DNA from: Candidatus Poribacteria bacterium
Lineage (GTDB): Bacteria > Poribacteria > WGA-4E > WGA-3G
Direction: 5' to 3'
Assembly: GCA_964291315.2 (NCBI GenBank)
Contig: OZ219750.1
Location: 64,001 to 128,000 of the forward strand
DNA length: 64,000 nucleotides
The translations under genes were made by a program, and so were the position numbers. Below are positions 20,919 through 55,681 of the stretch, piece by piece (the first letter of the stretch is position 1; each line of letters opens with the position of its first letter). Under the pieces are notes generated by a model. It did not search any database and had not been told where the DNA came from. It worked only from the letters and a program-made list of their open reading frames with translations.

Positions 20919-21831
20919 CTTGAGTTTTTCCTCCTTGTGCTTCAACACTTCGGACGAAAATTTCGTGTAATGTTGGTTCTACTAATTCGAACCGTGTTAT
21001 ATTGACCCGTTTTTCAATTAGTTCTTGAAGCAGGGGGCGGTAGTCTTCCGGATCCTTCAATTTGAGCTCGGCGTATTGCCCGAAATCGTTGAGTCCGTGA
21101 ATCCAGTTGGAGTTGTGCATGGGTTCAAGGCTACCTATGTATTCAATCTCGACAGAATTTTTGCCGAAGGTGCGTTTCACAGTGCGAAGTTCATCTTCAA
21201 TCAATACCTTGCCTTGATGAATGAGGCAGATACGGTCGCATAGTTTTTCTACCTGCTCCATGACGTGGGTTGAGAAGATAATTGTACTGCCGTCTTCACG
21301 TAGTTCAAGCATCAAATCTTTGAGGAGCGTCATGTTAATCGGGTCTAGCCCTGAAAACGGTTCATCAAGAATGATGAGATCGGGTTTATGAATGACGGTA
21401 GTGATGAATTGGATTTTTTGAGCCATGCCCTTGGAGAGTTCATCAACCCGTTTATTTTCCCACTCCGAGAGTTGCATTTTGGTCAGCCATTTTTCGATGT
21501 CGCGGAGGGCCTGCTTTCTGTGTACCCCTTTCAGTTCAGCGATAAAAAGAATAACATCCCGCACCTTCATTTTGCGGTACAGGCCGCGTTCCTCAGGAAG
21601 GTACCCAATCCGATCCAAGAAATCTCGAACGTGGAGATTCCCGTTGAAGATAATAGTCCCGGTATCTGGGGCGATAATATCCATTATCATTCGAAGTGTT
21701 GTTGTTTTTCCTGCACCGTTGGGTCCTAGAAGCCCGTATATACTTCCTTTCTGAATACTGAAGGAGATATCTGAAACGGCTGTGAAGTCGCCGAATTTCT
21801 TGTGGACATTTTCGATTTGGAGGAGTTGCAT
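20908..21831 (-). CDS. ABC transporter ATP-binding protein (NatA-like)
   Basis: GPNGAGKT, LSKGM, ILDEPFSGLD, EPTLHEIF. Confidence 0.92.
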   Translation of the reverse strand: MQLLQIENVHKKFGDFTAVSDISFSIQKGSIYGLLGPNGAGKTTTLRMIMDIIAPDTGTIIFNGNLHVRDFLDRIGYLPEERGLYRKMKVRDVILFIAELKGVHRKQALRDIEKWLTKMQLSEWENKRVDELSKGMAQKIQFITTVIHKPDLIILDEPFSGLDPINMTLLKDLMLELREDGSTIIFSTHVMEQVEKLCDRICLIHQGKVLIEDELRTVKRTFGKNSVEIEYIGSLEPMHNSNWIHGLNDFGQYAELKLKDPEDYRPLLQELIEKRVNITRFELVEPTLHEIFVRSVEAQGGKTQDAE

Positions 21832-35483: not shown

Positions 35484-36647
35484 TCATTGATAGAGGCGTT
35501 TGTTTTCAAGAGCGAGCCAAGTGCCATAATCGCGGGGCATCTGTGCTATCTCGCCTAAGCCGGCTTCCGCCCGCCAATGCAATAGCGGATGCTCCCGATT
35601 TTTCTGCGGCAGATCGACTCGCCTGCCATAAACTGCCGATTCGAAGATAGCCATTAGAATCTCAATGACGTGGCGTCCTGCTTCGCCATTAGACTGGTGG
35701 TCTCGGTTTTCGTCTAGTGCATTCACGTAAGCGTCTACGAAGCAGTAATCGTCAGCGTCTGCTCCTGTCTCGGGGTCAAAATGTGTTGGGTAGATAGCTG
35801 TGAGTGGCTGCCACTGGTCGTTTATTCCATCTGGGACGAAATGCGGTGTGGGGAGCCACCATGCTCCTTTCAATTCCGACCACAGCAGTCTGCCTTCAGT
35901 GCCGTAGAGTTCCATGACATAAGCGTCGGTATCGACTTTTGGGAATCTGTGCTGCAGGAGGGTTCCGGTAACATTTCCTTCGAATTGGAGCGTTGCGGTG
36001 ACGTATTCGCCTGCGACTGTGCCCATGCCTGCGGGTGCAGGAAGCACATCTTCATGGTGGATGCTGCGTCCGCCGGTCGTTGCTTGTGTTATGACACTTC
36101 GGCACTTCTGGCCGAAACGGAGCATATTGTTGATGACATGTGTTCCGATGTTCATTAATCCGTAGCCGGCGTAGTAGCCTTTTCCGCTGGCGTAGATGTA
36201 GCGGAGTTCGCCGATTGTTCCGGCTTCGAAGACTTTCGCAATTGCCTGCATTGATGCCCCGGTGCGTCGTTGATGGTGTACGGCGACGCGAGCGTTCTTC
36301 TCTTTCGCCTTTGCTAGGAGGGCGTCTGCTTGGACGAGGTCGATGCAGAGCGGTTTTTCCACCTCGATGTTCACGCCGTGTTCGAGCACACGCATACAAA
36401 GAGGGTAGTGTGTCTCTGTTGCTGTGGAGATGGCGACAATATCGGGGTTGGTTCGTCGAATCATCTCGTCTAAATCGGTGAAGTGTGCTGAGGCGGGTAC
36501 GTTCAAGATGTCGCCGAGGGTCTTTAACCGGTCTTGAACGAGATCGCAGAGTGCCACGATTTGGGTGCGCGGGTGTGCGTGATACGCCTTTGCGGCAGAA
36601 GTGCCTCGGCTTCGGCATCCTAATATTGCGACGCGATAAGTTTTCAT
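35484..36647 (-). CDS. Gfo/Idh/MocA family oxidoreductase
   Basis: MKTYRVAILGC, EKP, HHQRR, GTH. Confidence 0.88.
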   Translation of the reverse strand: MKTYRVAILGCRSRGTSAAKAYHAHPRTQIVALCDLVQDRLKTLGDILNVPASAHFTDLDEMIRRTNPDIVAISTATETHYPLCMRVLEHGVNIEVEKPLCIDLVQADALLAKAKEKNARVAVHHQRRTGASMQAIAKVFEAGTIGELRYIYASGKGYYAGYGLMNIGTHVINNMLRFGQKCRSVITQATTGGRSIHHEDVLPAPAGMGTVAGEYVTATLQFEGNVTGTLLQHRFPKVDTDAYVMELYGTEGRLLWSELKGAWWLPTPHFVPDGINDQWQPLTAIYPTHFDPETGADADDYCFVDAYVNALDENRDHQSNGEAGRHVIEILMAIFESAVYGRRVDLPQKNREHPLLHWRAEAGLGEIAQMPRDYGTWLALENKRLYQ

Positions 36648-36677
36648 GATGTCTCCTAATCTCGGAAACCTATGGAT

Positions 36678-36734
36678 GCACAATCTAACAGATTATGCTA
36701 CAAGAGCTATTGCACGACCTAACGGGTTATGCTA
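36678..36734 (-). repeat. Two tandem GTAG-type REP-like units
   Basis: gcacaatctaacagattatgctacaag and gcacgacctaacgggttatgcta. Confidence 0.65.
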
Positions 36735-36859: not shown

Positions 36860-37237
36860 TTAGGATTTGTCGGGGTTCTTTTTCAGGTTAGTTTTCGGTT
36901 TCCACTCGCGGATAATTTCGGTTTCTAACAAAACCGTTTCGTCAGCGTTTTCTGTAAATTGTACCGAAAATTGAATGATAGGTCGAAACAGCCGAATCTG
37001 TGAACTCAGCTCATCGTTCTGTGCATTTGTGGAGTGTTCTAACAATCGTCTGCGCACACAGGTTGTGGATTCTCCAACATAGAGACACTCGTTCCGGCCT
37101 TCAATCCCAGTTTTCCGCCATAACGCGTACACTCCACTGCGGCGAGTCGGCAGTTGTAGAATCTCCGCTCGTGTGAACGGGCGGAGGTTACGCTTGAGTC
37201 GATACCGCAGGATGTAAGGAGTAAGTGTGTCACACAT
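36860..37237 (-). CDS. Small GIY-YIG nuclease domain protein
   Basis: SGVYAL...LYVGES...VRRRLLEH...LETEII...PKTN; start uncertain (37237 or 37270). Confidence 0.8.
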   Translation of the reverse strand: MCDTLTPYILRYRLKRNLRPFTRAEILQLPTRRSGVYALWRKTGIEGRNECLYVGESTTCVRRRLLEHSTNAQNDELSSQIRLFRPIIQFSVQFTENADETVLLETEIIREWKPKTNLKKNPDKS

Positions 37238-37287
37238 GAAAGCAGCTCTAGATGTGTGCTGGTGCAGCACTTAAAAAAATTCGCCTT

Positions 37288-37311
37288 GCACAACCTAACG
37301 GGTGGTGCTAC
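37288..37311 (-). repeat. GTAG-type REP-like unit whose TAG is the stop codon of the DUF1156 gene
   Basis: gcacaacctaacgggtggtgctac; cta at 37308-37310. Confidence 0.6.
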
Positions 37312-40109
37312 GAACCTGAATTAAAATCCGCCTCTATCTGCTCAGGAGAGCCCATCGCTCGATAGATATACGTCCATTCCGTCACCAAGTAGTTATACTG
37401 CGACGCAGCCTCCGTATCGCCTAACGCCTCATAGTGGTTGTATAATATCAGGGCCAAACGTCTCGCTCCATCATAATCACGCATCAAGCGCGCAACCCGC
37501 GCGCAACCCTGAATACCACCGCTGAACTCACTGTGAGACAGATGCCAGGCCATCCGAAGACACCCCTCCCACGACGACATCTCTCGGCGCTCCTCGCGAT
37601 CCGCGTATTCCTCCGATCTCAACAGACGCACGCTGCCCGGAGACGACAGCAGCAGCGTGTCGTGCATCGCCTCGATATGAACGCCCTTCGCCTTTGAAAG
37701 TGCCTCGGCATCCCCAAAACTGCCCGCCGAGTAGCCGTGTTGCCGCAGCCAGGTCAGACAGAACTGCGTCTCTGGATCGAGTTGTCCCATCACCTTCTCG
37801 TGATAAGCGGTAATTGCGTTGTTGATGTGCAGCAGTGCCTCTCGTATGGAGACGACTTCGCCGCTCATGCGCGTCACGCTGCGATAGCGGGAGTAGATCT
37901 CCATGCCTGGGCCGATGGCGGCTTGTGCCAAGTCGACGGGTCTGATGTTTGCGATGCGGGTGAGCCGTTCGAGAGCAGCGGGCATCTCGTGTTCCAGGGC
38001 GCGTATGAAGGCGTTTCTGTCGCTGCGGGGTGCGTCCTCGGGACGCGGTCTGCACACCAACAAGATAGAGGATGCCAAAGCGTTCGTCACTGTCTTTAGA
38101 CCTGTAGTTCTCTCTGTGCGCAGGGGCCAGGTGGCGACGATCTGAAAGCCGGCGTTGATAGTTGCCTCCAGCATCGTCTCCCATCCGGTGGAGGTTTTTC
38201 CGCCTTGTTCTTTTTCCTGCTGTTTATAGGCGTAGAAAATAGACGCAGGGTATTCGTCTGAACAGTAGCGGCGCATCTGCCGAAACGACTTGCTGAGTAA
38301 GTCTTCAAAATGCTGTTTTGGGTTTTCAAACCGTGGAATGGCGGTTATTTCCTCTGCCTTTGGTGTTGTCATGCCGGCGAACAGTTCTGGATAGGTGTTG
38401 CGCAAGAGCGGTCTGAGCCAGACGTAGAAGAAGTCGGAGAGGTCTGCGAAGCCGATATTATCGTAGTAAGGGGGATCGGTGATGATAACGGGTGCATCTT
38501 GGACGTACTGTGTGGTGCACACATTTGCTTGGGACACCTCGCCGGGGTTTGCAGAGGCGGGCAGCTTCTCTACTACCTTTGCAACCCATTCTACTTGTGC
38601 TGTCCAATTCTGTGTAGATGTGGAAAAGGGATTGGCTTCAACGAAACCCCAAGTCATCGGAATCGCATGCCGTGAGAAGAGGGGTGGAATTGCTTCCGAT
38701 CCGTTTTCCCACCATGTAAAGCTGCACCCACTCTCCGCGGTCCTGCCGATAGCGACTGAGAGATAGGTGGAAACCGCATCGGCATACTGGTTTTCTGCTC
38801 CGTCCTCTCTCATGCGTTTGTGAACCTCTGACAATAGGTCAGAGAAGGTGTTGAGTGCTGTCAACTGCCGTTCTGTGAAAAGTTGGTGCCAGTTGGTGAA
38901 ACCGTAAAGCTGCGGACTTATGCTTATTCCCTGCGTCGGCAGCTTGCCTCTGGGTCTCCAACTCGGTTCAGCCGATTGGGCAACCTGAATATGAGCGGCA
39001 GTAGGAGATAGGAACACTTTTCTGCTGTCCCCCTCAGCGACTATTGCTGTCATTGTCTCTCCGATCTTGCCCGATTTCCCCTGCTCCCGGAGGTAAGGCA
39101 ACTTCGCAGCCGCACCGCAACCGCAACAATACGCACCCGTGCGCATCACCGTGGGGGCAGGCAACCCGGCAGCGTCGGTCTGCACCTGCCACGATATGCT
39201 ATTCGTCTCTCTGTCAACCACCGGCTTAATGTAGTGCTCATGTCCCTTCTTTTTCGACAACTGGAACGTCTTTATCAACGGTATCTGTAGACCGCAAGCG
39301 GGGTTAATACACAGCACCGTGCGCGCCCAGAGCCACGCAACCACAGTAGCTGAAGTGCCGTCGTGCAACTGCACCTTCGGATAGAGATGCCCAATCCGTT
39401 TGTATGCCTGCTCGCGCATCCAGGCACCATAGTAGCGGATGTCCGCTGCTAATCCCGCAGTGCCTCTCCAAGGCGCGCGAACCGTGCTTTTGCTATTGTT
39501 TGTGAACATGTGCATCGGATCCGCCTCTGGGTTGACCGGTTGCTGATCGTGGAACTTCGGTGGCAGTTCAATCATCGCCTTGTTCAGTAGCACCGGGAGC
39601 GGGTTCAGGTCGGAGCCTCGTGCGTTTAGTCCTAAGCGTTGTGCCTCAAGCGGAACCGAGCCGCCGCCACAGAAGGGATCGTAGACAGCGGGGGCATGTT
39701 GGCGCAGATACCGCAAAACCGCCTCTGGATTCTCTTTGTGCCGCTCACGAAACTCGGTGAGGTCTTCTCCGTTGTTGCGGGCAACGGAGAGGGCGATCTC
39801 ATAGCGTGCCTCTGCCAGCAGGTTCTCATTGTTGCTGTTCTGCCAGATGACAAGCCGTTTAATGATGTCGTAGAGTCGGTCGCGTTCGGCTCCCTGTTCA
39901 TCTTCGGTTGGAAATTCGTCCTCACATTCGGCGGGATCGTCGACGAAGCTGGCGAAGACAATGGCGCGGCAGGCGGCGATCGGTCGACGCGCCCAGTAGC
40001 GGTGCAACGTTGAGGGGTGTCCGTGTGTCAGCGCAGCATCCTTTGCAGATTCTATATTGATATCTTGGAGCGGTATATTGACTTCGATGAGTTTTTTGCG
40101 GTGCGTCAT
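37308..40109 (-). CDS. DUF1156-family adenine DNA methyltransferase with a zinc ribbon
   Basis: KKLIEV, LHRYWARRP, DPFCGGGS, CINPAC...CCGCG, TDPPYYDNI, SDFFYVWLR, TWPLRTE. Confidence 0.9.
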   Translation of the reverse strand: MTHRKKLIEVNIPLQDINIESAKDAALTHGHPSTLHRYWARRPIAACRAIVFASFVDDPAECEDEFPTEDEQGAERDRLYDIIKRLVIWQNSNNENLLAEARYEIALSVARNNGEDLTEFRERHKENPEAVLRYLRQHAPAVYDPFCGGGSVPLEAQRLGLNARGSDLNPLPVLLNKAMIELPPKFHDQQPVNPEADPMHMFTNNSKSTVRAPWRGTAGLAADIRYYGAWMREQAYKRIGHLYPKVQLHDGTSATVVAWLWARTVLCINPACGLQIPLIKTFQLSKKKGHEHYIKPVVDRETNSISWQVQTDAAGLPAPTVMRTGAYCCGCGAAAKLPYLREQGKSGKIGETMTAIVAEGDSRKVFLSPTAAHIQVAQSAEPSWRPRGKLPTQGISISPQLYGFTNWHQLFTERQLTALNTFSDLLSEVHKRMREDGAENQYADAVSTYLSVAIGRTAESGCSFTWWENGSEAIPPLFSRHAIPMTWGFVEANPFSTSTQNWTAQVEWVAKVVEKLPASANPGEVSQANVCTTQYVQDAPVIITDPPYYDNIGFADLSDFFYVWLRPLLRNTYPELFAGMTTPKAEEITAIPRFENPKQHFEDLLSKSFRQMRRYCSDEYPASIFYAYKQQEKEQGGKTSTGWETMLEATINAGFQIVATWPLRTERTTGLKTVTNALASSILLVCRPRPEDAPRSDRNAFIRALEHEMPAALERLTRIANIRPVDLAQAAIGPGMEIYSRYRSVTRMSGEVVSIREALLHINNAITAYHEKVMGQLDPETQFCLTWLRQHGYSAGSFGDAEALSKAKGVHIEAMHDTLLLSSPGSVRLLRSEEYADREERREMSSWEGCLRMAWHLSHSEFSGGIQGCARVARLMRDYDGARRLALILYNHYEALGDTEAASQYNYLVTEWTYIYRAMGSPEQIEADFNSGS

Positions 40110-40651: not shown

Positions 40652-42034
40652 CTATTCAATCCACTGCATCGTCTCCCGGAGTTTTTCCTTTGCCTTTGCA
40701 TAATCCCGGCGCGTCCGATAATAGATACGTTGAGCCTCTGTAAATTGAGCTTGCGCTTGAAACGCGTCGTTGTAGGTGAGTCCTCGATAGCCGGGGATTT
40801 CGACTGTGACTTCGTCAAGCACCCGTTCTATTGTGCGTAGTTGTTGCTCGAAAATTCTGACACGTTTTTCTTCGATTTCCATTCGTTCTTTCGCGTTCGC
40901 CACTTCACGGTAGGCACGGCGGACCGCTACACGAATTGACTTTGTTTTTTCCAAGTGTACAAGCTGCATTCGTTCCAATTCTGCGAGTTCTCGGGATCTG
41001 ATATTTTCTGTTCGGTTTCCGTCGTATAAGGGAATATTGAAGTTGAAGCGCACTGCCCATCCGTCTTGATTCCGCGGATTCGTCTCAAAGATGCTCGGTA
41101 CATCTCGTTCTCTGTCAAGTATTAGAGGATCATATACGGCTTTTGCGTCCCAGGTTTGGTTTCGCTCTTGTTTTTCTAGGAGTAGGCTGAGGTCTTTGTA
41201 GCGTGCTTCAGCGGAAAGTTCGGGGAATCGACTCCAGATGGTCTCTGCAGCGAGGCGTTCTTGCCGGATTATATCGCCTTGTAAGTCGCGTAGGTCGAGA
41301 CTATTTGCGAGGGCGAGTTCAACGGCAGCCTCAAGCGTCACATCGTCATCGGGAAGCGGTTGTGAAAGGATGACGCGTGCCAATGGATCGAGTCCGATGA
41401 GACTGATGAGTTCAGCGGTATCCACATCGAGCTGTCGCTGGAGCTCGTTGAGTGCGAGTTGTTGTTCTGAGAGTTCAAGTTCGGTGTTGAGTTGGCTAAG
41501 AAAAGGTATTCGTTTTTCTGCCTGCTTAATTTGGGTGCCTTTCAGTTTTTGCTCTAGTTCTGCTGCGATCGCTCCGCGTTCCTCAATTTCTTCTTGTGTA
41601 AGCGTAATATTATGCCAGAGGTTGCGGACATCGTAAACACTGTGTTTCTTTGCGCGTTCATATTCAATCTCGGCTTTCCGCACGTCTTCTTGTGCTGCAT
41701 CAAGCCCTTGGGGAATTTCTCCGAATTGTGCGAAGAGCATGCTGATCTGTGCGCGACTGAGATAGTCGGTATCCTCGATACTGCCCTCTTTTTGGCGTTG
41801 ATATTCGCCTGTCAGTCCTACTTGGGGGAGATATACGGCTTTAGAGATACGGAGGTTTGCCTTGGCGCGTTGGACAACCTTTTCTGCTTTTTTGACGTTT
41901 TCGTTATTTCGTAGAGCGAGTTCTATCGCTCGTGCGGGTTGAAGCGATACAAACCGCTGAGGTGAGACGGCCCCGGCACTGCTGATAGATAAACACACCA
42001 GAAGGGTCATCAATTTTTTGCTTATGTTTCTCAT
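40652..42034 (-). CDS. TolC-family outer membrane protein
   Basis: Signal peptide; two repeats, AIELALRNN...YLPQV and LEAAVELALANS...FPELS; FNIPLYDG. Confidence 0.85.
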   Translation of the reverse strand: MRNISKKLMTLLVCLSISSAGAVSPQRFVSLQPARAIELALRNNENVKKAEKVVQRAKANLRISKAVYLPQVGLTGEYQRQKEGSIEDTDYLSRAQISMLFAQFGEIPQGLDAAQEDVRKAEIEYERAKKHSVYDVRNLWHNITLTQEEIEERGAIAAELEQKLKGTQIKQAEKRIPFLSQLNTELELSEQQLALNELQRQLDVDTAELISLIGLDPLARVILSQPLPDDDVTLEAAVELALANSLDLRDLQGDIIRQERLAAETIWSRFPELSAEARYKDLSLLLEKQERNQTWDAKAVYDPLILDRERDVPSIFETNPRNQDGWAVRFNFNIPLYDGNRTENIRSRELAELERMQLVHLEKTKSIRVAVRRAYREVANAKERMEIEEKRVRIFEQQLRTIERVLDEVTVEIPGYRGLTYNDAFQAQAQFTEAQRIYYRTRRDYAKAKEKLRETMQWIE

Positions 42035-42123
42035 TATTAGTTCTGTTTACGGTTCCCTATGATACTGGCAATAGGATGAATTTGTGTGAGTATCACGAAT
42101 TTAAAAACGCCAGTCGCCCTGCT

Positions 42124-44442
42124 TCAACGGCGGCTAATGCGGATTGTAACGACGACAATCGCAATCATGAGGAGTATCAGTGCCCCGAAAAGCAGCGTGG
42201 TCACCGACAATTGTGCTTGGGATTCAACCTGCACGGTAATGGATCGATCGCGTGCCTGAAATTTCCGGTTATCCACTGTGACTTCTGCGTTCAACTTGGC
42301 TTGATATTCCCCGACCTCAATATCCGTGGGCGGGCTTAACGTTAATTGTATTTCTGTCTCCTCATTTCGCCTGAGTGAATTGATAACTTCTGGGAGAACT
42401 GTGTATCTCCAATCCGTGTTGACATCAATAACCATACGGATATCCACGAGATCGCGGGTTCCTATATTTTTTAGGGTTGGTGTTATGTTGACCTCTTCGC
42501 CCATCTTGATTGTTTGGAAGGCGTTTAGGACGAATACCTCGATCTCTGGCACTCCTTTTGGAATTAGTTCGAACCGTTCGACTCCGCCTTGTATACTTTC
42601 GATTCTACTGGCTGGTAAAACCAGGCGATTGTTGACTCCGCCAAGTTCGTTTGCTTCGATTTCGTCAAGCACAGCGACATAGAACTCAAGCGTACTATCG
42701 AGGTAGGAGGCTTCTAGTTCCTCGGGTAGATAGACAATCAAGGACAATCTGCGTTTTGATTGTTCTTGTGTGAATTTGACCTGTGATTGCCGGGACTTCG
42801 TTTCTGGGTCTTGGAACTCAAAAGAGAGGCGTTCGAGTAGATTAATGATGCGCAGCTGGAAGGTATTTTCTGTTTCGGCCAATCGGTCTAGTGTCAAGTC
42901 GTAGGTGACGCTGCTTCCGAGGTTGCCTTCCTGCGAGAATCGTAATGAACTGACGTTGACGACATCCAAGGCGGATTCTTTTTGTAGATAGATGAGCCGT
43001 ATATCGGGTTCAGGCAGTTCAGGATATTTTAGGGAGACTTTCAAGCTGTCGACATCTTTCTGAAGTTGGAAGGTTAATTCCACTGTTTCGTTGTAGCCGA
43101 GGAGTTTTATCTTGGTTTCATAAGGTTTGACGATGTTTGTGTCATCGGTGACATCGAGCAAGGTGACATAAATTCCTCGGATCTCATTTGCTGCAGCGAT
43201 TTCTTCGGGCGTGGCGTTGCTTGGCATCGCTTCTGTAGTGGAGGTATTCTTCAATTGCAGCGTCACCATCATCTGTCCGCCTGTGTTGCTGGCGACGCGG
43301 AATTTTTTCGCGCTCAGGATAGAGATGTGGCGTGTATCTTCCTCGAGATGTATTCTTTTGGGGTAGGGCTTATCGAGGTATAGGATATAAACGGTAAGGC
43401 TATCGACATTGCGTCGGAGTTCAAAATCGAGAGTTGTTGCCTGTCCGTCTTTGAGCGTTGGAATGCGGTATTCGTATGGGTAGCCGATAATAGCGTCTGT
43501 TTCGTCTCTGATAGAGACGTAGACGTTGTTGATTTCTTGTGCTGTTGCCGCATTTGATTGGTCATCGGGAGTTGTGGGATATGTTTCTTTTCTGGTGTCT
43601 TCTATTGCCCCGTAGGTGAGGACGACTTCCAAGCGTCGTCGGTCTCCCTTCTTGTATCGTCTTGCTGACACGACGGAGATATAGGGGTCTTCCTGTTTTA
43701 GGTGGATATTTTTATTGTCGGTCTCCCCGGAGTATGTCAATTCTACGACGACGTCTCGGACATCCTGTTTTATGAGTTCAAATTCCAAGGTAACGGCTTC
43801 GCCCTCTTTGAGTGTTTTGATGCGTTGCTCGTAGGGTTCGGCGATAATTGCGCCGCTTGCGCCGTAACTTTCCTGTTCTTTAATGGAGACAAAGATGTCA
43901 TCAATCTGTGCGCTGATGATAATTTCGCGTCCTAGCACTTTGGAGCTCTCTACGAGTTTGACAGGCGAAGAGCTATTCCGCAAGGTGATTGAGAATAGCT
44001 CTTTTCCATCAGCGGATTCATATAGGTTTGTTTTTTCGACAGTGATGTGCCATTCGTCTTTGAGGGAGTGAAGTTCGGTTTCTTGGAGCATGAGTTTTGC
44101 TTGTTCGTATTCGGAGACAGCTGTTTCGTAATCTTCTTCCGCTTTATTGACTTCGGAGACGGTGACGATATTATTTGCCTCCCTCATCATGGCTTTGAGA
44201 TTTTCAAGTTCAACGAGTTTTTTTTTCATGAGCTGTTCCTTGAGTTGCATTTCCAGGCGCTTGGTCTCTATCTGGATTTGTCGGCTCTGCTCCTCTTTGG
44301 TCTTTGGTCTATTTTCATCGTCGGGTGGGGGCTCTTCTGCGAACGTAATTTGTGTTTTTATAGGCAGCAGCACTCCGATCGCGGTAAGGAGGATCAGCAT
44401 GCTTGTCAAAGCATGATAGGTCTTCCTTCTATATTCTTCCAT
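42124..44442 (-). CDS. Exported protein: N-terminal helical hairpin, three ~120-aa beta repeats, NEW3-like Ig domain, C-terminal transmembrane anchor
   Basis: Signal-like N-terminus; repeated I..[IV][FY]V[ST]...PYE..I..L......L.F.L..[DN]V; LKNIGTRDL..I...DW...GEY; C-terminal hydrophobic helix followed by RISRR. Confidence 0.75.
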   Translation of the reverse strand: MEEYRRKTYHALTSMLILLTAIGVLLPIKTQITFAEEPPPDDENRPKTKEEQSRQIQIETKRLEMQLKEQLMKKKLVELENLKAMMREANNIVTVSEVNKAEEDYETAVSEYEQAKLMLQETELHSLKDEWHITVEKTNLYESADGKELFSITLRNSSSPVKLVESSKVLGREIIISAQIDDIFVSIKEQESYGASGAIIAEPYEQRIKTLKEGEAVTLEFELIKQDVRDVVVELTYSGETDNKNIHLKQEDPYISVVSARRYKKGDRRRLEVVLTYGAIEDTRKETYPTTPDDQSNAATAQEINNVYVSIRDETDAIIGYPYEYRIPTLKDGQATTLDFELRRNVDSLTVYILYLDKPYPKRIHLEEDTRHISILSAKKFRVASNTGGQMMVTLQLKNTSTTEAMPSNATPEEIAAANEIRGIYVTLLDVTDDTNIVKPYETKIKLLGYNETVELTFQLQKDVDSLKVSLKYPELPEPDIRLIYLQKESALDVVNVSSLRFSQEGNLGSSVTYDLTLDRLAETENTFQLRIINLLERLSFEFQDPETKSRQSQVKFTQEQSKRRLSLIVYLPEELEASYLDSTLEFYVAVLDEIEANELGGVNNRLVLPASRIESIQGGVERFELIPKGVPEIEVFVLNAFQTIKMGEEVNITPTLKNIGTRDLVDIRMVIDVNTDWRYTVLPEVINSLRRNEETEIQLTLSPPTDIEVGEYQAKLNAEVTVDNRKFQARDRSITVQVESQAQLSVTTLLFGALILLMIAIVVVTIRISRR

Positions 44443-44492
44443 AATCTTTGTATCCTTTGCCTTATTGTGTGCGTGGTGGCGTAACCGTGCTT

Positions 44493-45227
44493 CTATGCGG
44501 TAGTTTCTTCTTCAAGTTGGTAGCCGGCGACATAGTGCAGATACAACGCCTCAAGGTCCTCTCTTTGGATCTCTTCGCGTGTGAGTTCCCGTTCAAGGTT
44601 GCCTTGGACAAGGATTCCGATTCGGTCGGCGATTTCCTTGGCGCGGAAGATGTCGTGCGTAGACATAAAGATAGCTTTTCCTTCTTCTCTTAATTGACGG
44701 AGCAGCTTCAAGAAATCAGCGCCTCCCTTGGGGTCGAGGCCAGAGGTTGGTTCATCGAGGAGGACGGCTTGTGCGTTTTTCATAATGGCAATGGCGATTC
44801 CGAGGCGTTGCCGCATTCCTTTCGAGAACGTTTTGACGCGCCGCGTAAACGCCTCCTCGGGTAATCCGACGCGTTCGAGCGTTGTATCTAATTCGGCATT
44901 TGATACTTTCTTGCGTCCGCCGAGTTTTGCGAAAAAGGACAAGTTTTGCCGTGCCGTGAAGTTCCGATAGAGTTCAACGTTTTCTGAGACGTAGGCGAGA
45001 TGCTTCTTCGCGTCTAGCGGAAACTTCGGAATTTCGATATCATCTATGAATGCGGTGCCGCTCGTGGGTTCGATGAAGTTCAAGAGCAGGGAGATAGTTG
45101 TGCTTTTCCCTGCACCGTTCGCCCCGAGGATGACATAGATTTCGCCGTCGTCTACTTTCAGATTGAGTTTATTGATGGCTAAAACGTTTTCATTATAGAT
45201 TTTCGTGAGGTCCCGGGTTACTAACAT
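44493..45227 (-). CDS. ABC transporter ATP-binding protein (ABC-2 type)
   Basis: GANGAGKS, FSKGMRQR, LLDEPTSGLD, STH. Confidence 0.92.
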   Translation of the reverse strand: MLVTRDLTKIYNENVLAINKLNLKVDDGEIYVILGANGAGKSTTISLLLNFIEPTSGTAFIDDIEIPKFPLDAKKHLAYVSENVELYRNFTARQNLSFFAKLGGRKKVSNAELDTTLERVGLPEEAFTRRVKTFSKGMRQRLGIAIAIMKNAQAVLLDEPTSGLDPKGGADFLKLLRQLREEGKAIFMSTHDIFRAKEIADRIGILVQGNLERELTREEIQREDLEALYLHYVAGYQLEEETTA

Positions 45228-49453: not shown

Positions 49454-49510
49454 GCAACGCGAGTTATCAAGTTAATGGTCGTCTGGCTCGCTACAAGCGG
49501 AGAGAAACGA

Positions 49511-52500
49511 GTGCCAAAGATTAAAAATAAAGAGTTATCGGTTGTCAGCCATAGGCTGTCAGCAGCCCGTCAGATGCCGGTTGTTAAGAACCAGCTGTCG
49601 AGGGTTATTTTTCGAGTTTATGTCTGTCTTGCGGTTCTGATGCTGCCTGCTAATGTCTGGGCAGGTATCACGAGTTTATCACTTGACGCGAACGGTGATA
49701 AGGTTTTCAAGGGTGGGCAGGAGCAGTTAAATATTGTTTTTACGGTTGATCAAAATACTGCCGAGGGTGGAGATACCTATACAGTTACGGCGAATCAACA
49801 TTTGATTAGGCGTGGTACTGTAGCTGCGAACGGGTCAGTGCGTATCCGCTGGAACGGGCGTATTAACAACACGCGGCTCCCGGACGGGAGTTATACCATT
49901 AAGGTTACCCTCAGCAAAGAAGGTGGCACTGGGGAGATATTGGAAAGATCTGAGACGGCTATTTTAGATACAGAACCGCCGCGCATCTCTAGTATATTTG
50001 CTAATGAGAATTCTAGTTTGTTGCTTAGCGATGGTGGCTTTATTAATGTGCCGCTTCGTTCCATAACTGTAGTTCCTGAGGCAGATGTGGGGAGTCCGAT
50101 TGATTTCGCTGCTGCCCGGACGAATGTTGTTTTGAAGAATGATCGTGGTGTTGTGCGCGGTGGTACCCTCAATTACACGACACAACTGAACTTGAATTTG
50201 GGAAATCCTTTAGATATCCGTTCGGAAAATGGGCGTTATACGGTGACCGTCACCGTGGTAGATGAAGCGGGTAACTTCGTTGAAGACACAACGGAATTTA
50301 TTTTCGATAATGTGGCCCCGAGTTTAACGTCTGTGGCTGGCAGCAGTGGTGCAATATCTCCGGGTGCGAGTCTTAACGGGCGTTTGGATTTTGTTGAGGC
50401 GGTGCTTTCGGACAATTTAGAGAACGGTGTGAATCTTTCTAGTTCGACGATCCGTCTGACAGGGCCAGCGGGCGAAGTTTTTGGGAGTCAGACGTTTCTG
50501 GGAAGCGATAAGATTCGGTGGGTATTTCTATCGCCTTTATTAGCGAGAGATGGTCTTCATGATGGTGAGTATACCGTTGAAGTGATTGGAACGGATAAGG
50601 CGGGTAATCAGAGTAGTGCTGTCCGGGTTCCTTTTGTTTATGATAACCTTGTGCCAGAGCTCCTCACTTTAGGTCCGAGCCAAGATGAGGCTTTCAACCG
50701 GATAGGGGATACGATTTACCACAATCAACCGCTTACCCAGATTGTTGCCACCTTTAGCGATGGCGATTCTGGGGTTGGTATCGATTTTGAGAAGAATACT
50801 TGGATTCGGTTTAGCGCTGTTGGAGATGGGAATACGCGTCGGGTGCTTGCGGGCCGGAGCTTTGTAGATAAAAATAACGCGCGAGTTACGCATGTTTTGG
50901 AAGAGCCCTTGGTGAGTCAAGATGGCCGTTATAGGCTTGATGTGCAATTCGCTGATACATTGGGTAATATGGATAACGAAACGTTCCACTTTCTTTATGA
51001 CACTCAACTCCCGACCGTTGTGTCTACCTTTCCTGCAGCCAATCAGACCGTTGCTAATTTATCGCGGGTACAAGTGGTTCTGAATGAAGTGACGAGCGGT
51101 ATTGATTTCACTCAGAGTGTTTTCCGGTTGACGCGGTCTGTGGGGGGCAGCCAAACAGAGGTTTCTGTTAATATCACGAACAATGGAATGGACACTGCGA
51201 CTTTAACGGTGTTAGAGCCTATTGCTCTGGATGGTTCAGACAACGGTACGTATGCGATAGAAGTTACCCCGACTGATCGTGCTGGTAACATTGGTGCGTC
51301 TGCTCGGCGTGAGTTCTATCTCGTCAGTCAGAGCCAAGTTGAGGTGCGATTAACAACGCCTGAAGTCACGACTGTCAGTACTTTGGATAGCGTTGTGGTG
51401 GAGCTTGTGGGTTATATCGGTCCAGGTGTTAATCTTAATGGTTCAACGCTTACAGTCACAAATCCGCGGGGTGTTGTGGTTCCGGCGAGACGGGTTGAGA
51501 CGGATGCGGCGAATAACCTCTTAACGTGGAGTACGGATGCGGTAATTCCGCGCGATGGCACGGCAGATGGTGAATACACTATCGCTGCGACGTTCGTTGA
51601 TTTTGGTGGGAGGCGTTTTGTCCGCGAATTTCAGGTCGTTTTAGACACACAGTTTCCAGCGGTCGCGAGTGTCGAAGTTGCGACTGACCCGGAACGAGTA
51701 CTTTCGAGGGATAGGACTACAGATATCACTGTAGGCTTCTCGCAAATCACAGTGACTTTTGAAGAAGCTTTTCGCACAAATGATATTGACTTTTCGAATA
51801 CAAATGTTACGCTTACCGATCCGGATGGCGAGAGCATTCTTATCAACCGTTTCGATAACGGACGGACTGTTTTAACGTTGAATTTTCGGACTTTGACGCA
51901 GCCGGGTGAATATGTGCTTTCAATTGTGCCGATGGACTTAACAGGCAACCAAAGCACAGCTCCATTTGTCTACCGGTTTCGGATTGAAATTGCGCTGCCT
52001 ATTGTGAGTTCGGTTCTGATTGATGACAAGGCGGGTACGATTGTTTATGTCAACGGTGAGTCTACTGAAATCGTGGTTACTTTCGTGGATACGACGGGCG
52101 TTGGTTTAGATTTAGGTGCTGGCGGTTCAACGATCACTGTGACTAACGAGAGTAATCTTCCTGCTCCGGGGTTCACTACGTCGAGTGAAGAGAATCAATT
52201 GACGTGGGTTCCGATAGTGCTTCCGACTGATGGAAGTGCGGATGGACGTTACACGGTCACTGTTACGCCGAAAGATAAGGATGGTAGGCAAGGCGAGACC
52301 GTATATCGCCAGTTTATTTACGACACACAGGAACCGCGTGTAACTGCTGCGGTTCCGGTTGACTTGTCGCAATTTGTCTCGTATATCGGTGACAGACTGA
52401 CGCGGCTGCAGATATCTGTTGAAGATGTGGGTCCCGCGGGTTTGGTATTAGAAGAACAAAAAGTTACTATCCTTGATGCTGAGGGTGTGCCTGTGGCAGG

Positions 52501-55500
52501 AACGCTCACAACCGATAAGATAAACGAGCAGCTCTATTTCACTTTTGCGTCTCCTTTCCCACGGGATGGGAGCAAGGATGGGGAGTATCTGGTAGCGTTT
52601 TCTCTGATTGATAAATCGGGAAATCAGCTTGATGCCGAGCATAGATTCGTTTATGATTCACAAGTGCCGAAGTTAACGGGTGTCACGTTAAATACAGCTA
52701 TGCCGACTGAACTTCACCCGAACGAGGTTCCCGAGATTTTGGAGCCTATCAGTGGTATCGTGTTTAAATTTGAAGATACGACGCTTGTTGATTTTGCTAA
52801 TACCGTGATTCAGTTGGTTGGTCCTGATGAATCGGAGATTCTGCTTAACTTAGAAGACGATGGGACTTCTGAGGTAGTTGCGGATTTCTTAACGTTGACT
52901 CAGATTGGTTCGTATACCCTGTCTGTGACTCCTCAGGATATTGCGGGGAATGCGGCGTCGGGTGCGATACGTTACGAGTTTGTTTTGGATATATCGCCTC
53001 CCCGCGTCGGCGGTGTGGTTATCGGTGATCAAGAAGAGGGCGTTGCGTATGTAAATGCGAGCAACATGGTTATTGTTGCGCGTCTGCTTGATCCAACAGA
53101 AACCGGATTAGATTTTGGGAGTCAGCGTTCAACCATCCAAGTGCAAACGGCTGAGGGAACAGTGGTTCCGGGGCTTACCAGCAGTAATAGCGTGGATTTG
53201 ATTGGCTGGGAGCCGGCGGCATTCACATCTGACGGAAGCACGGATGGAAAATACAGCGTATATGTTGTGCCTGTTGACAAGGTTGGAAGGCAGGGGACTA
53301 CCGTCTATCGTGAGTTTGTCTACGATACGCAAGAACCACAGATAACTTCTGCGGAGCCTGTTGACTTAAGTCAGCCGGTTTCATATATCAGCGACAATCT
53401 GATGCAGTTTCACTTGAGCATAGAGGATGTTGGGCCTGCGGATCTGGAATTGTCGGATCAGAAAGTGAGCTTGCTTGATGCGGGTGGGACTTCGGTCCCG
53501 GCGCAATTGACTCACGATAGCAGCGGTGAGATATATCTTACGCTTGATGAACCGTTATCTCGCAATGGCAGTATGGACGGTGAGTATACTCTTCGTGTTG
53601 CGTTAGTGGATAAATCTGGGAACACTTTCAGTATTGAACATACTGTTGTTTATGATACACAAGCTCCGACGTTAGTGAGTACTGTGCCTGCTGATGGTGC
53701 TTTGGTTACTGCGGATCGGACGCAGGTGCTTGTAACGCTCAAAGATACTGGAGGTAGCGGTATAGATTGGAATGGAACTACGGTGACCTTAGTTGATCCG
53801 AATGGTTCGGAATTATCGGGTGAACTTGTCAGTGATTCGGTGGGGCAGTTAACGTTGAATACGAACCAGCTCATTGCGGATGGGAGATACATCATTCGTG
53901 TAAGAGCGGTTGATCGTGCTGGGAACGGAAGTGCGACTGTCTTTGAACGTAGTTTTTTACTTTCGAGACGTTTGCCTGTTCTGGTTTCGACTTCCCCGAA
54001 GACGGCCCCTGCAAATGAGGCGTTTAGCAATGCGGAGGTTGATCAGATAGAGGTGCTCATTGAGACAGATGATGAAAATCATCTCTCGACACTGCGACTC
54101 TTGAATGGTTCAGATCAACTGGTTGCCGGGCAGCAGCTGCGCGAATCTGATCGGTTGGTTTATGATCTTGTTCGTCCGCTTGCAGCGGATGGTTCGGATG
54201 ACGGTGTGTATACGATTGAGTTTACACCTATCAGTGCTTCTGGGCGCACGGGAGATGTTCAAAAACGCACCTTTACACACGATACAGAAGTGCCTGAAGT
54301 TGAGCCTGAAGCGATTAGTCTCGTTGTTGCCTCTGCTGATTCTAATAATTCGTTGACAGAGATTCATGTTAGTCCTACAGATGAAGAGTCGGGGATTGAT
54401 TGGGAAAACGTTGATTCGGAGTGGCTGACTCTTGAGCGTGTTTTGCCGAACCCGACTCAAATTGCGGGGCGTGTTGAGGATGACAACCAAGGCGTGCTTC
54501 GTTTTGTATTGACTGTACCTCTTGCGGATAATGGTTCGGCTGATGGTGAATACAAGATTGTTGTTACGCCTAAAGATCTAGCGGGAAACGGTGGTGTGTC
54601 TTATGAACAGGTTTTTACCTACGATACGAAACCGCCGATGATTGACGTGGGAACTCTGCTTCTCAATGATGCTGCCCTCCTTGTTGACATTGATGCGGTG
54701 GCGTATCCGACAGCGGTTTCTACGACGGGTGGGGTGATGATACAAGCGAATATGTTTGATACGGGCTTGGGTGTTAACCTTGCGCAGTCGAGTATCGTCA
54801 TCAGGGGTCCGGATGGTAGTGCGGTTTCGGGCAGTACACAGCAAAACGGTGTTGATACGATTGTCTTCAAATCTGACGGTTTGTCAATGCGAGGGCTTTA
54901 TCAAGTCGAGGTTGTAGGTGTGGGCAATGACTCCGAGTTGTTGGGGTTTGCGCCGTCAGATTCGATTACGACAGAATTTCTGTATGAAACGACTGTGCCG
55001 ACTGCTGCTGTAACAGCTGATGGGGGTGAGACCGAACTCACGGATAAGGCGCTTCCGTTGGAGGGGACAGCTTCGGATCCAAGCGGCACACAAAAGGTGG
55101 GTGAAACGGACATAATAGTGCCTGCATCGGGGGTATGGCTTGTTGAGATAGTAGGGACTGGTCCCGATAAGCAGCCCATTGATCCGGTACCTGCTGTTGA
55201 TGATAGTAGTGCGGAACAGGAACCGTGGAGTTTCTGGTCTCTTGACTTTCTCCCGACCCGTTCGGGTGAATACGACTTGGATGTTCGCGTCACTGATAAT
55301 GCTGGCAACACCGAGGTTTACGACATTGGAAAGTATACGATGTCGGTATCGCTCACGTTCCGGGATCCCACGTTTGGGTGGCCAAATCCGTTGAGAATTT
55401 CCAAAGGTGATGTGGCTTTCTTTTCGTTTGATGTCAATGTTCCGCGTGGAGACACTGTTAAACTTACCTTGAGTATCTATGATTGGAGTGGTGACATGGT

Positions 55501-55681
55501 TCTTTTGCAGACGTATCCGGATGTTGTATCGGGGCAGCGAAATGACCAGTTGGTGAAATGGAATTTAGAGAACCAAGCGGGTAATCGTGTTGCGCGCGGT
55601 CTCTATGTCTTCCGTTTAGAGGCGGTTAATGCGGCGGGGAATAGCGCGAACGCTGTTGGCAAAGTGCTTGTTGTTGACTAA
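49511..55681 (+). CDS. Giant secreted Ig-like repeat protein with a T9SS-like/FlgD-Ig C-terminal domain
   Basis: Signal peptide ending NVWA; about 16 ~110-aa units, each with GxY...D..GN...[FY]D[TN]..P; C-terminal WPNP...IYDWSG...WNLEN..G..VARGLY...KVLVVD; GTG start behind GGAGAG. Confidence 0.85.
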   Translation: MPKIKNKELSVVSHRLSAARQMPVVKNQLSRVIFRVYVCLAVLMLPANVWAGITSLSLDANGDKVFKGGQEQLNIVFTVDQNTAEGGDTYTVTANQHLIRRGTVAANGSVRIRWNGRINNTRLPDGSYTIKVTLSKEGGTGEILERSETAILDTEPPRISSIFANENSSLLLSDGGFINVPLRSITVVPEADVGSPIDFAAARTNVVLKNDRGVVRGGTLNYTTQLNLNLGNPLDIRSENGRYTVTVTVVDEAGNFVEDTTEFIFDNVAPSLTSVAGSSGAISPGASLNGRLDFVEAVLSDNLENGVNLSSSTIRLTGPAGEVFGSQTFLGSDKIRWVFLSPLLARDGLHDGEYTVEVIGTDKAGNQSSAVRVPFVYDNLVPELLTLGPSQDEAFNRIGDTIYHNQPLTQIVATFSDGDSGVGIDFEKNTWIRFSAVGDGNTRRVLAGRSFVDKNNARVTHVLEEPLVSQDGRYRLDVQFADTLGNMDNETFHFLYDTQLPTVVSTFPAANQTVANLSRVQVVLNEVTSGIDFTQSVFRLTRSVGGSQTEVSVNITNNGMDTATLTVLEPIALDGSDNGTYAIEVTPTDRAGNIGASARREFYLVSQSQVEVRLTTPEVTTVSTLDSVVVELVGYIGPGVNLNGSTLTVTNPRGVVVPARRVETDAANNLLTWSTDAVIPRDGTADGEYTIAATFVDFGGRRFVREFQVVLDTQFPAVASVEVATDPERVLSRDRTTDITVGFSQITVTFEEAFRTNDIDFSNTNVTLTDPDGESILINRFDNGRTVLTLNFRTLTQPGEYVLSIVPMDLTGNQSTAPFVYRFRIEIALPIVSSVLIDDKAGTIVYVNGESTEIVVTFVDTTGVGLDLGAGGSTITVTNESNLPAPGFTTSSEENQLTWVPIVLPTDGSADGRYTVTVTPKDKDGRQGETVYRQFIYDTQEPRVTAAVPVDLSQFVSYIGDRLTRLQISVEDVGPAGLVLEEQKVTILDAEGVPVAGTLTTDKINEQLYFTFASPFPRDGSKDGEYLVAFSLIDKSGNQLDAEHRFVYDSQVPKLTGVTLNTAMPTELHPNEVPEILEPISGIVFKFEDTTLVDFANTVIQLVGPDESEILLNLEDDGTSEVVADFLTLTQIGSYTLSVTPQDIAGNAASGAIRYEFVLDISPPRVGGVVIGDQEEGVAYVNASNMVIVARLLDPTETGLDFGSQRSTIQVQTAEGTVVPGLTSSNSVDLIGWEPAAFTSDGSTDGKYSVYVVPVDKVGRQGTTVYREFVYDTQEPQITSAEPVDLSQPVSYISDNLMQFHLSIEDVGPADLELSDQKVSLLDAGGTSVPAQLTHDSSGEIYLTLDEPLSRNGSMDGEYTLRVALVDKSGNTFSIEHTVVYDTQAPTLVSTVPADGALVTADRTQVLVTLKDTGGSGIDWNGTTVTLVDPNGSELSGELVSDSVGQLTLNTNQLIADGRYIIRVRAVDRAGNGSATVFERSFLLSRRLPVLVSTSPKTAPANEAFSNAEVDQIEVLIETDDENHLSTLRLLNGSDQLVAGQQLRESDRLVYDLVRPLAADGSDDGVYTIEFTPISASGRTGDVQKRTFTHDTEVPEVEPEAISLVVASADSNNSLTEIHVSPTDEESGIDWENVDSEWLTLERVLPNPTQIAGRVEDDNQGVLRFVLTVPLADNGSADGEYKIVVTPKDLAGNGGVSYEQVFTYDTKPPMIDVGTLLLNDAALLVDIDAVAYPTAVSTTGGVMIQANMFDTGLGVNLAQSSIVIRGPDGSAVSGSTQQNGVDTIVFKSDGLSMRGLYQVEVVGVGNDSELLGFAPSDSITTEFLYETTVPTAAVTADGGETELTDKALPLEGTASDPSGTQKVGETDIIVPASGVWLVEIVGTGPDKQPIDPVPAVDDSSAEQEPWSFWSLDFLPTRSGEYDLDVRVTDNAGNTEVYDIGKYTMSVSLTFRDPTFGWPNPLRISKGDVAFFSFDVNVPRGDTVKLTLSIYDWSGDMVLLQTYPDVVSGQRNDQLVKWNLENQAGNRVARGLYVFRLEAVNAAGNSANAVGKVLVVD

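Follow-up and report, generated by a model that had tools for sequence, protein, structure and literature searches.

A conserved cassette of ABC ATPase, hairpin-NEW3 protein and TolC-family channel genes in Candidatus Poribacteria: a candidate export pump with a C-terminally anchored adaptor

In the genome of a Candidatus Poribacteria bacterium, a run of three minus-strand genes encodes an ATP-binding cassette (ABC) ATPase, a 772-amino-acid (aa) protein with an N-terminal helical hairpin and a C-terminal membrane anchor, and a TolC-family outer-membrane factor (OMF). The run lies at positions 40652-45227 of the window, that is, of the whole 64,000-nucleotide stretch of DNA analysed here (G000:C1:64001-128000). 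Sequence comparison of this and related loci establishes a conserved linkage of four components, namely the OMF, the hairpin-NEW3 protein, the ATPase and two ABC-2 permeases, with no classical membrane fusion protein (MFP) detected among the neighbouring genes scanned. The most likely reading of this linkage, which is held here with moderate confidence, is a tripartite ABC-2 export pump with a new, C-terminally anchored adaptor. To our knowledge, every characterised TolC-channel pump is joined by an adaptor of one family, the MFPs. No description of an ATPase-NEW3-TolC system was found in the literature searched, whose coverage did not extend to subscription journals.

The three-gene cassette and its conservation

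The genes of the cassette are as follows:

44493..45227, minus strand: ABC ATPase of 244 aa, nucleotide-binding domain only, ABC-2 (DrrA/CcmA-like) class (Pfam, NCBIfam, motifs)
42124..44442, minus strand: 772-aa hairpin / immunoglobulin (Ig)-stalk / NEW3 protein, candidate periplasmic adaptor (Pfam, AlphaFold2, homologues)
40652..42034, minus strand: TolC-family OMF of 460 aa (Pfam OEP)

The open reading frames (ORFs) of the trio are tightly spaced, and since the intergenic gaps measure only 50 and 89 bp, there is no room for a further gene between them. All three are intact and 82-92% identical to their nearest orthologues. The ATPase is recognised by Pfam ABC_tran (PF00005, E 3.4e-30, 105.9 bits against a cut-off of 25), and its top NCBIfam matches, all below the respective cut-offs, are DrrA (176 bits), a lantibiotic-protection ABC model (161 bits) and GldA (140.6 bits, far under that model's cut-off of 402.6). 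By inspection its motifs are complete: Walker A GANGAGKST, signature FSKGMRQR, Walker B LLDEPTSGLD and H-loop STHD. The OMF matches PF02321 (OEP) in two tandem stretches (C1:104823-105935; E 5.6e-35, 121.3 bits against a cut-off of 22). There is no permease or MFP gene near the trio, and the closest ABC-2 permease gene in the window lies about 20 kb off (19587-20948), directly adjoined by an ABC-ATPase-like ORF. That is to say, the tight three-gene run without a permease or an HlyD/AcrA gene, which an earlier note made from the DNA letters had described, is borne out by the ORF list and by Pfam.

A scan of a genome collection gave 80 Poribacteria loci at 74-89% identity. At these loci the ATPase was found by tblastn in 79 and the OMF in 78, the gene order being always ATPase-NEW3-OMF; all three misses of a cassette gene stand at contig ends, and the flanks are variable. 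The cassette ATPases (79 of the 80 loci) are 85-93% identical to that of the window. Moreover, a homologue search with the 772-aa protein returned 531 proteins at E ≤ 0.001, the best 120 of which are all 79-100% identical, and the family was found by its profile in 117 of 176 Poribacteria genomes.

The genes around the cassette were scanned through representatives of 55 of the 196 flanking-gene clusters in Poribacteria and through 74 ORFs of metagenome loci, and no classical MFP family of Pfam was matched among them. In the genome of the window there are three OMF genes; the other two each adjoin an MFP gene, and the OMF gene of the window adjoins the gene of the hairpin protein instead. The HlyD_D23 (MFP) matches of this genome are all on contig C4.

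The linkage extends beyond Poribacteria. When 1.84 billion cluster representatives were searched exhaustively, 404 matched at E ≤ 0.001, and most of these are about 500 aa long and align from about residue 410 to residue 772. These relatives are 24-45% identical, with Latescibacterota, Zixibacteria, Bacteroidota and Acidobacteriota as named sources, and alignment shows that they have the signal peptide and hairpin, a single beta repeat, NEW3 and a C-terminal helix ending in RR; the Poribacteria form has two more copies of the repeat. Of the 19 loci obtained in a metagenome scan with a 10-sequence alignment, 13 were of readable length, and in 10 of these 13 the NEW3 gene or genes are directly preceded by an OEP gene; the other three comprise two loci cut by the contig end and one with the order permease-NEW3-ATPase. 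ABC ATPase genes are present in six of the 13 and ABC-2 permease genes in six, and at L095 the order OEP-NEW3-ATPase-permease-permease runs on one strand. The linkage to TolC and ATPase genes, which the earlier note had proposed to survey among homologues, thus held both in Poribacteria and in distant relatives.

In many of the distant loci the NEW3 gene is present as tandem paralogues, with complete pairs at L096, L097, L098, L101, L103 and L105 and partial ones at L099, L100 and L102. All six complete pairs have two distinct conserved tips, one of the GFVxLQT type and one of the IETVExLN type, which, by analogy with TriAB, suggests that the paralogues may form a mixed adaptor ring. In addition, seven distant loci (L096-L099, L101, L104 and L105) encode, downstream of NEW3, a protein of about 265 aa that has a UvrB/UvrC (UVR) motif at its C-terminus and may belong to the module.

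Several further observations concern the cassette loci of Poribacteria. Genes of extracytoplasmic function (ECF) sigma factors recur beside the cassette (a 209-aa form downstream of the OMF gene in 24 of the 80 loci, and sigma-BNR fusions of about 995 aa in 16), and these neighbours hint at envelope-stress control. At 26 loci, the first gene of the operon encodes a membrane protein of 502 aa with an AhpC/TSA domain. Two distant copies of the cassette per chromosome occur in several closed genomes (L010/L012, L011/L056, L014/L025 and others); in at least one of these pairs, L010/L012, a permease gene lies upstream at L010 and none at L012. The cassette of L063 (CBDCWS010000001.1), a sequence labelled Nitrosopumilus sp., is 82% identical to that of Poribacteria, and the contig is probably mis-binned. 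At L055 (8001-11271), the match to the 772-aa protein ends at about residue 668 and an opposite-strand ORF stands before the OMF gene, so this copy may be interrupted by an insertion.

Architecture of the 772-aa protein and its hairpin

The full 772-aa protein was modelled with AlphaFold2 (AF2) at a mean predicted local distance difference test score (pLDDT) of 84.6, and a second model was made of the fragment of residues 42-255 (pLDDT 87.4). Its parts, from the N-terminus to the C-terminus, are as follows:

44338..44442, minus strand: Sec-type signal peptide, residues 1-35 (basic n-region, hydrophobic stretch 11-27, AF2 helix 3-21)
44053..44298, minus strand: antiparallel alpha-helical hairpin, residues 49-130 (AF2; helices 49-87 and 95-130, turn 88-94)
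44161..44196, minus strand: hairpin tip in the register of the RLS motif, residues 83-94 (K83-x3-R87-x6-T94)
43687..44052, minus strand: beta repeat 1, residues 131-252 (AF2; pairwise repeat alignment)
43333..43686, minus strand: beta repeat 2, residues 253-370 (AF2, loop 281-301 disordered; pairwise repeat alignment)
42973..43332, minus strand: beta repeat 3, residues 371-490 (AF2; counterpart, by alignment, of the one repeat in the ~500-aa relatives)
42508..42972, minus strand: further beta-sandwich domains, residues 491-645 (AF2 pLDDT mostly >90; best-conserved part of the family)
42280..42507, minus strand: NEW3 (NPCBM_assoc) domain, residues 646-721, membrane-proximal (PF10633, E 9.3e-8, 32.6 bits against a cut-off of 24.4)
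42127..42210, minus strand: C-terminal transmembrane (TM) helix and basic tail RISRR, residues 745-772 (AF2 helix 745-771)

Every element of the layout read by the earlier note (signal peptide, hairpin, three repeats, NEW3 and C-terminal helix) was recovered, and the anchor is C-terminal rather than N-terminal, as it had supposed, with the helix 745-771 and the basic tail in the AF2 model. Pfam recognised NPCBM_assoc/NEW3 as the sole family in the protein. The three repeats of about 120 aa are pairwise 39, 28 and 30% identical (E 7e-16, 4e-9 and 2e-15), and repeat 1 of the fragment model aligns with the Ig/fibronectin type III (FnIII)-like accessory domains of glycoside hydrolase GH3 and GH2 enzymes; with the full model, Foldseek returned only generic chains of Ig or macroglobulin domains, with template modelling (TM) scores of at most 0.24. 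Among 65 sequences, the NEW3 residues N659, G661, W678 and P684 are invariant, and R771 and R772 are at least 90% conserved.

At the N-terminus, cleavage after ITFA(35) is likely, as read from the translation. In the AF2 model, residues 25-41 form a disordered linker, and the N-terminal segments of relatives have A-x-A sites similar to that of the window. A dual-anchored topology like that of GldG was considered and found unlikely, since the N-termini of the window protein and of its relatives read, by inspection, as A-x-A signal peptides. Pfam gave no match of the 772-aa protein to the GldG-type family ABC_transp_aux, neither at E ≤ 0.01 nor at E ≤ 1.

For the hairpin, the block-mean pLDDT of the helices 49-87 and 95-130 is 84-96 in the full model, and pLDDT values reach 98 across both models. 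In the fragment model it superposes on the hairpin of the adaptor AcrA with a root-mean-square deviation of 1.2 Å over 75 residues (Z 10.1), and the values for HlyD, EmrA, MacA (5nik_D, Z 8.9) and MexA lie at Z 8.6-9.9. Moreover, 38 of 69 relatives have a deletion of about seven residues that is matched in both arms, and a deletion in a single arm was seen in one of the 69. Such paired deletions fit an antiparallel hairpin independently of any model; together with the two AF2 models, they support such a fold for the segment which the earlier note had placed at about 44070-44290.

The sequence likeness to adaptors is found at the level of the family. The family profile, built from 69 relatives, was searched against 177,635 PDB sequences, and its top matches were MexJ (E 3.3e-4), TriA-TriB (5.1e-4) and MacA (1.3e-3), followed by MexA, ZneB and AcrA. 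Adaptor hairpins make up 15 of its 23 PDB matches, and most of the others fall on the NEW3 region. When the same 69 relatives were compared singly with NCBIfam at E ≤ 1, the five families most often matched were all adaptors (RND_mfp in 50 relatives, CzcB in 29, EmrA in 19, MdtN in 14, HlyD in 13), and DevB was matched by 8. By these comparisons, the hairpin of the family resembles MFP hairpins specifically, and the window's own hairpin is more diverged. The Pfam labels PF25893 and PF25876, which are precomputed on 10 of 85 relatives and which we take to be MFP hairpin families, were not used as evidence.

The tip of the hairpin was compared with a known docking motif. According to PMC3391258, the RLS/RLT motif RxxxLxxxxxx[S/T] at the hairpin tip binds the tip of TolC in MacA, AcrA and HlyD. 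The tips of the family keep this spacing: among the 69 relatives, Leu is found in 63, Ser or Thr in 55 and Arg in 30. If either Leu or Met is allowed in the middle, 25 relatives have the full motif, and every one of these has the short hairpin. Among 120 orthologues, the tip reads [K/R]xxxMxxxxxxT in 113 and KxxxLxxxxxxT in one, and five have no anchor match.

The rest of the protein is not that of an MFP. Neither Biotin_lipoyl_2 nor an HlyD-type family of Pfam was matched in the 772-aa protein, and an N-terminal half of a lipoyl domain is impossible, because only the signal peptide and the disordered linker precede the hairpin. The anchor of the MFP type, which is N-terminal, was not found either: the N-terminal hydrophobic stretch reads as a cleavable signal peptide, and the protein is anchored by the helix 745-771. 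Since it has no lipoyl, beta-barrel or membrane-proximal domain, is anchored at the opposite end and matches no MFP model above the cut-off, the 772-aa protein is not an MFP; it plausibly works like one.

Permeases and other genes around the cassette

The commonest neighbour of the cassette in Poribacteria is an ABC-2 permease of about 470-520 aa (PF12679 + DUF3526), of which 211 genes occur in 72 of the 80 loci. A permease gene lies upstream on the same strand in 66 of the 80. Among the remaining 14, five have little upstream sequence, and nine, with at least 6 kb upstream, share the permease-less arrangement of the window. A hydropathy scan of the ABC-2/DUF3526 permeases gave six hydrophobic segments and two long loops.

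The loci L048, L052, L059, L068 and L071 are syntenic with the window: they share the upstream genes of YjeF and of a 136-aa protein, and they have permease genes between these and the ATPase gene. For this reason, the arrangement of the window looks like loss or relocation. In the 192 bp that precede the ATPase gene, no remnant of a permease gene was seen, and tblastn with permease queries matched contig C4 only. On that contig the genome has seven ABC-2/DUF3526 permease genes, at C4:249652-252566, C4:342737-344155 and C4:3194529-3200694 (L092-L094), and the nearest ABC-ATPase-like sequences lie 54.9, 110.6 and 23.6 kb from the three sites. Their closest solved relative is NosY (7o0y_D, E 2.3e-7). 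The simplest view of a permease-less ATPase and seven ATPase-less permeases is that they belong to one system encoded in pieces, and, as judged from gene content, the permease of the window system is encoded in trans and is not absent. The suggestion that the permease would be encoded elsewhere or replaced is thus upheld in its first half, by the seven orphan genes on C4, and not in its second.

The group of four permease genes (L094) is preceded by six ORFs without a Pfam match (L094 2319-7606), one of which resembles a 253-aa secreted protein placed after the permease genes in other Poribacteria loci. It was also observed that Arg87 of the hairpin tip coincides with a locus that has no adjacent permease genes.

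Other genes surround the trio in the window. Directly downstream of the OMF gene, 37308-40109 (minus strand) encodes a 933-aa DUF1156 DNA methylase that matches HmaB nearly from end to end (PADLOC, E 9.9e-275); HmaB is part of the Hma defence system, and this methylase may be solitary. It is followed by a small GIY-YIG nuclease-domain protein (36860-37270, minus strand) and, as the next ORF on the same strand, by an oxidoreductase of the Gfo/Idh/MocA type (35484-36683), which was judged by eye only. On the plus strand, 49475-55681 encodes a 2068-aa secreted protein with many similar units of about 100 aa (...DGxYTxxVTxxDxAGN...), which looks like a giant repeat protein resembling adhesins.

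A candidate export pump, its rivals and its meaning

According to the favoured reading, the trio would form the conserved core of an exporter that is driven by ATP and reaches across the whole cell envelope. The 244-aa ATPase, as a dimer, would power ABC-2/DUF3526 permeases, here encoded in trans on C4, and the 772-aa protein would replace the periplasmic adaptor. After cleavage of the signal peptide, the C-terminal helix would hold this protein in the inner membrane, with NEW3 beside the permeases; the chain of Ig-like domains would serve as a stalk, at the end of which the N-terminal hairpin would touch the TolC-like trimer at its periplasmic end, in the tip-to-tip manner of the MacA and AcrA hairpins. 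In this scheme we infer the cleavage of the signal peptide, the oligomerisation of the 772-aa protein, the contact of hairpin and OMF, the contact of NEW3 and TM helix with the permease, and the direction of export.

Among known systems, MacAB-TolC is similar in that an ABC motor, a periplasmic adaptor and a TolC-family channel are encoded together and in that a dimeric ABC transporter has to be matched to a trimeric channel. Its adaptor MacA, which is hexameric, has a hairpin of similar length with a tip motif of the RLS type, and it is matched by the family profile at E 1.3e-3 to 2.2e-3. The differences lie in the permease, since MacB is of the four-helix type and the permeases of the related loci and the orphan permeases are of the ABC-2 type, which here has six TM helices plus a pair of periplasmic inserts, and in the adaptor, since the 772-aa protein carries its hairpin N-terminally on five to six Ig-like domains and is anchored at the C-terminus, not at the N-terminus as MacA is. 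In TriABC-OpmH, TriC is a resistance-nodulation-division (RND) transporter and TriA and TriB are classical MFPs. Among the PDB matches of the hairpin profile, the TriA-TriB fusion (6vej) ranks second, in two stretches, and the pairing of these two adaptors recalls the tandem NEW3 paralogues with their distinct tips, whereas the Poribacteria cassette has one NEW3 gene. The YbhGFSR operon of E. coli encodes the ABC-2 permeases YbhS and YbhR, the ATPase YbhF and the HlyD-family MFP YbhG, and has no OMF gene; it likewise joins two ABC-2 permeases, an ATPase and an adaptor-type periplasmic protein in one operon, whereas here a NEW3/Ig protein takes the adaptor slot and the OMF gene is adjacent. Large periplasmic partners of ABC-2 transporters are found in NosDFY, where NosF and NosY work with NosD, a beta-helix protein without a hairpin and with no OMF in the system, and in GldA-GldF-GldG, where GldG is a large membrane-anchored auxiliary protein without a hairpin or a linked OMF; as mentioned above, GldA is one of the NCBIfam models that score highest with the ATPase.

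A number of results weigh against a pump of this kind. In shape, the hairpins of unrelated proteins score as well as those of the adaptors (MORC2 Z 10.0, F-BAR 9.6, tubulin cofactor A 9.4), so that the structural match is one of shape only and is not specific. Foldseek, which the earlier note had proposed for this segment, returned Ig- or FnIII-like matches only, with the full model as with the fragment 42-255, none informative on the hairpin. In sequence, the matches of relatives to MFP models cover the hairpin only and are far under the curated cut-offs (for P0134, 15.3 bits against 94.9 for RND_mfp). An MFP model was matched at E ≤ 1 by only two of 25 proteins of the Poribacteria class, and the window protein itself matches no MFP family at E ≤ 1 and no MFP chain of the PDB at E ≤ 10; because of this, its likeness to MFPs comes only through homology to the ~500-aa relatives. 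The MFP-like hairpin that the earlier note had seen therefore holds for the family, and not for the window protein taken by itself. The Arg of the docking motif is found in none of 31 long-hairpin relatives, and the tip of the window reads KxxxRxxxxxxT, with Arg87 (44182-44184) at the position of Leu, which is unique among the 120 orthologues. In addition, the lipoyl, beta-barrel and membrane-proximal domains of MFPs are missing from the 772-aa protein; five to six Ig-like domains plus a hairpin of about 5.5 nm may, by our estimate, be too long for the distance from the inner membrane to the tip of TolC; and with no adjacent permease, this copy depends on partners encoded in trans. The earlier idea of an adaptor of inverted topology is thus supported in part, by the hairpin, the C-terminal anchor and the linkage to OMF and ATPase, and lacks an MFP match of the window hairpin by itself.

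Some of these results would fit a different role, in which the 772-aa protein assists an ABC-2 transporter as an accessory subunit, much as GldG or NosD does. Its task would then be substrate capture, scaffolding or the transmission of force, the hairpin would mediate self-association or contact with the periplasmic domains of the permease, and the OMF would be reached otherwise. The membrane-proximal half, with NEW3, the TM helix and the C-terminal RR, is the best conserved; the permease core is closest to NosY, which works with a periplasmic partner and no OMF; the window hairpin matches no MFP model; and the relative P0161 (658 aa) has the beta repeats, NEW3 and the C-terminal helix without the N-terminal hairpin. 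This role leaves unexplained, however, why an OMF gene adjoins the NEW3 gene in 78 of the 80 Poribacteria loci and in 10 of the 13 distant ones, why no MFP was detected among the genes scanned at those loci, and why the hairpin resembles those of MFPs rather than coiled coils in general, and ABC_transp_aux is not matched in Pfam. We regard it as unlikely, though as the strongest of the alternatives. Much less probable is that the protein is a membrane-anchored surface or S-layer-like protein, or cargo of an ABC/TolC system. Domains of the NEW3/CARDB type with a C-terminal anchor are typical of cell-surface proteins, the full-length Foldseek matches are strings of Ig and macroglobulin domains, and the putative S-layer model PACE-CTERM is weakly matched (E 0.0057, 15.4 bits against a cut-off of 110); in a diderm, though, a protein whose C-terminal TM helix ends in a basic tail on the cytoplasmic side is held in the inner membrane rather than at the surface. 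Neither a Sec signal peptide nor a TM anchor is found in the cargo of type I systems. Across phyla, the gene occurs strictly one to one, or in pairs, with those of the ATPase, the permeases and the OMF, which agrees better with a subunit than with a surface protein or cargo. The linkage data, and the fact that the hairpin matches are specific, count against the accessory-subunit role as well as against a surface protein or cargo.

A last alternative is that the trio in this genome is a decaying leftover, whose adjacent permeases were lost and which no longer works. The five syntenic loci have permeases where the window has none, and Arg87 occupies what is otherwise a Met position in the orthologues. 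Against this, the three ORFs have kept their integrity and their identity to the closest orthologues, the catalytic motifs of the ATPase are complete, the permease-less arrangement persists across species in the nine further loci, and the seven ATPase-less permease genes need such an ATPase. It is the least probable of the readings weighed here.

Beyond this genome, the family may represent a second, independent class of adaptors for TolC-type channels, in which a C-terminally anchored Ig stalk shares only the docking hairpin with the MFPs. It would be spread over five phyla and always serve ABC-2/DUF3526 transporters, with a mixed ring of two paralogues in many lineages and a stalk length tuned by repeat duplication (three repeats in Poribacteria versus one). 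The chances for and against this wider proposal seem to us evenly balanced.

If the export-pump reading is true, an adaptor that has kept the docking hairpin alone would show which part opens and holds the channel. ABC-2 transporters, so far mostly seen as inner-membrane machines, would gain a route across the whole envelope, and in this genome the permease-less ATPase would be paired with the seven ATPase-less permease genes. It would also give a role to the widespread 'NEW3 domain-containing' and DUF3526 proteins of poorly known phyla, including dominant sponge symbionts.

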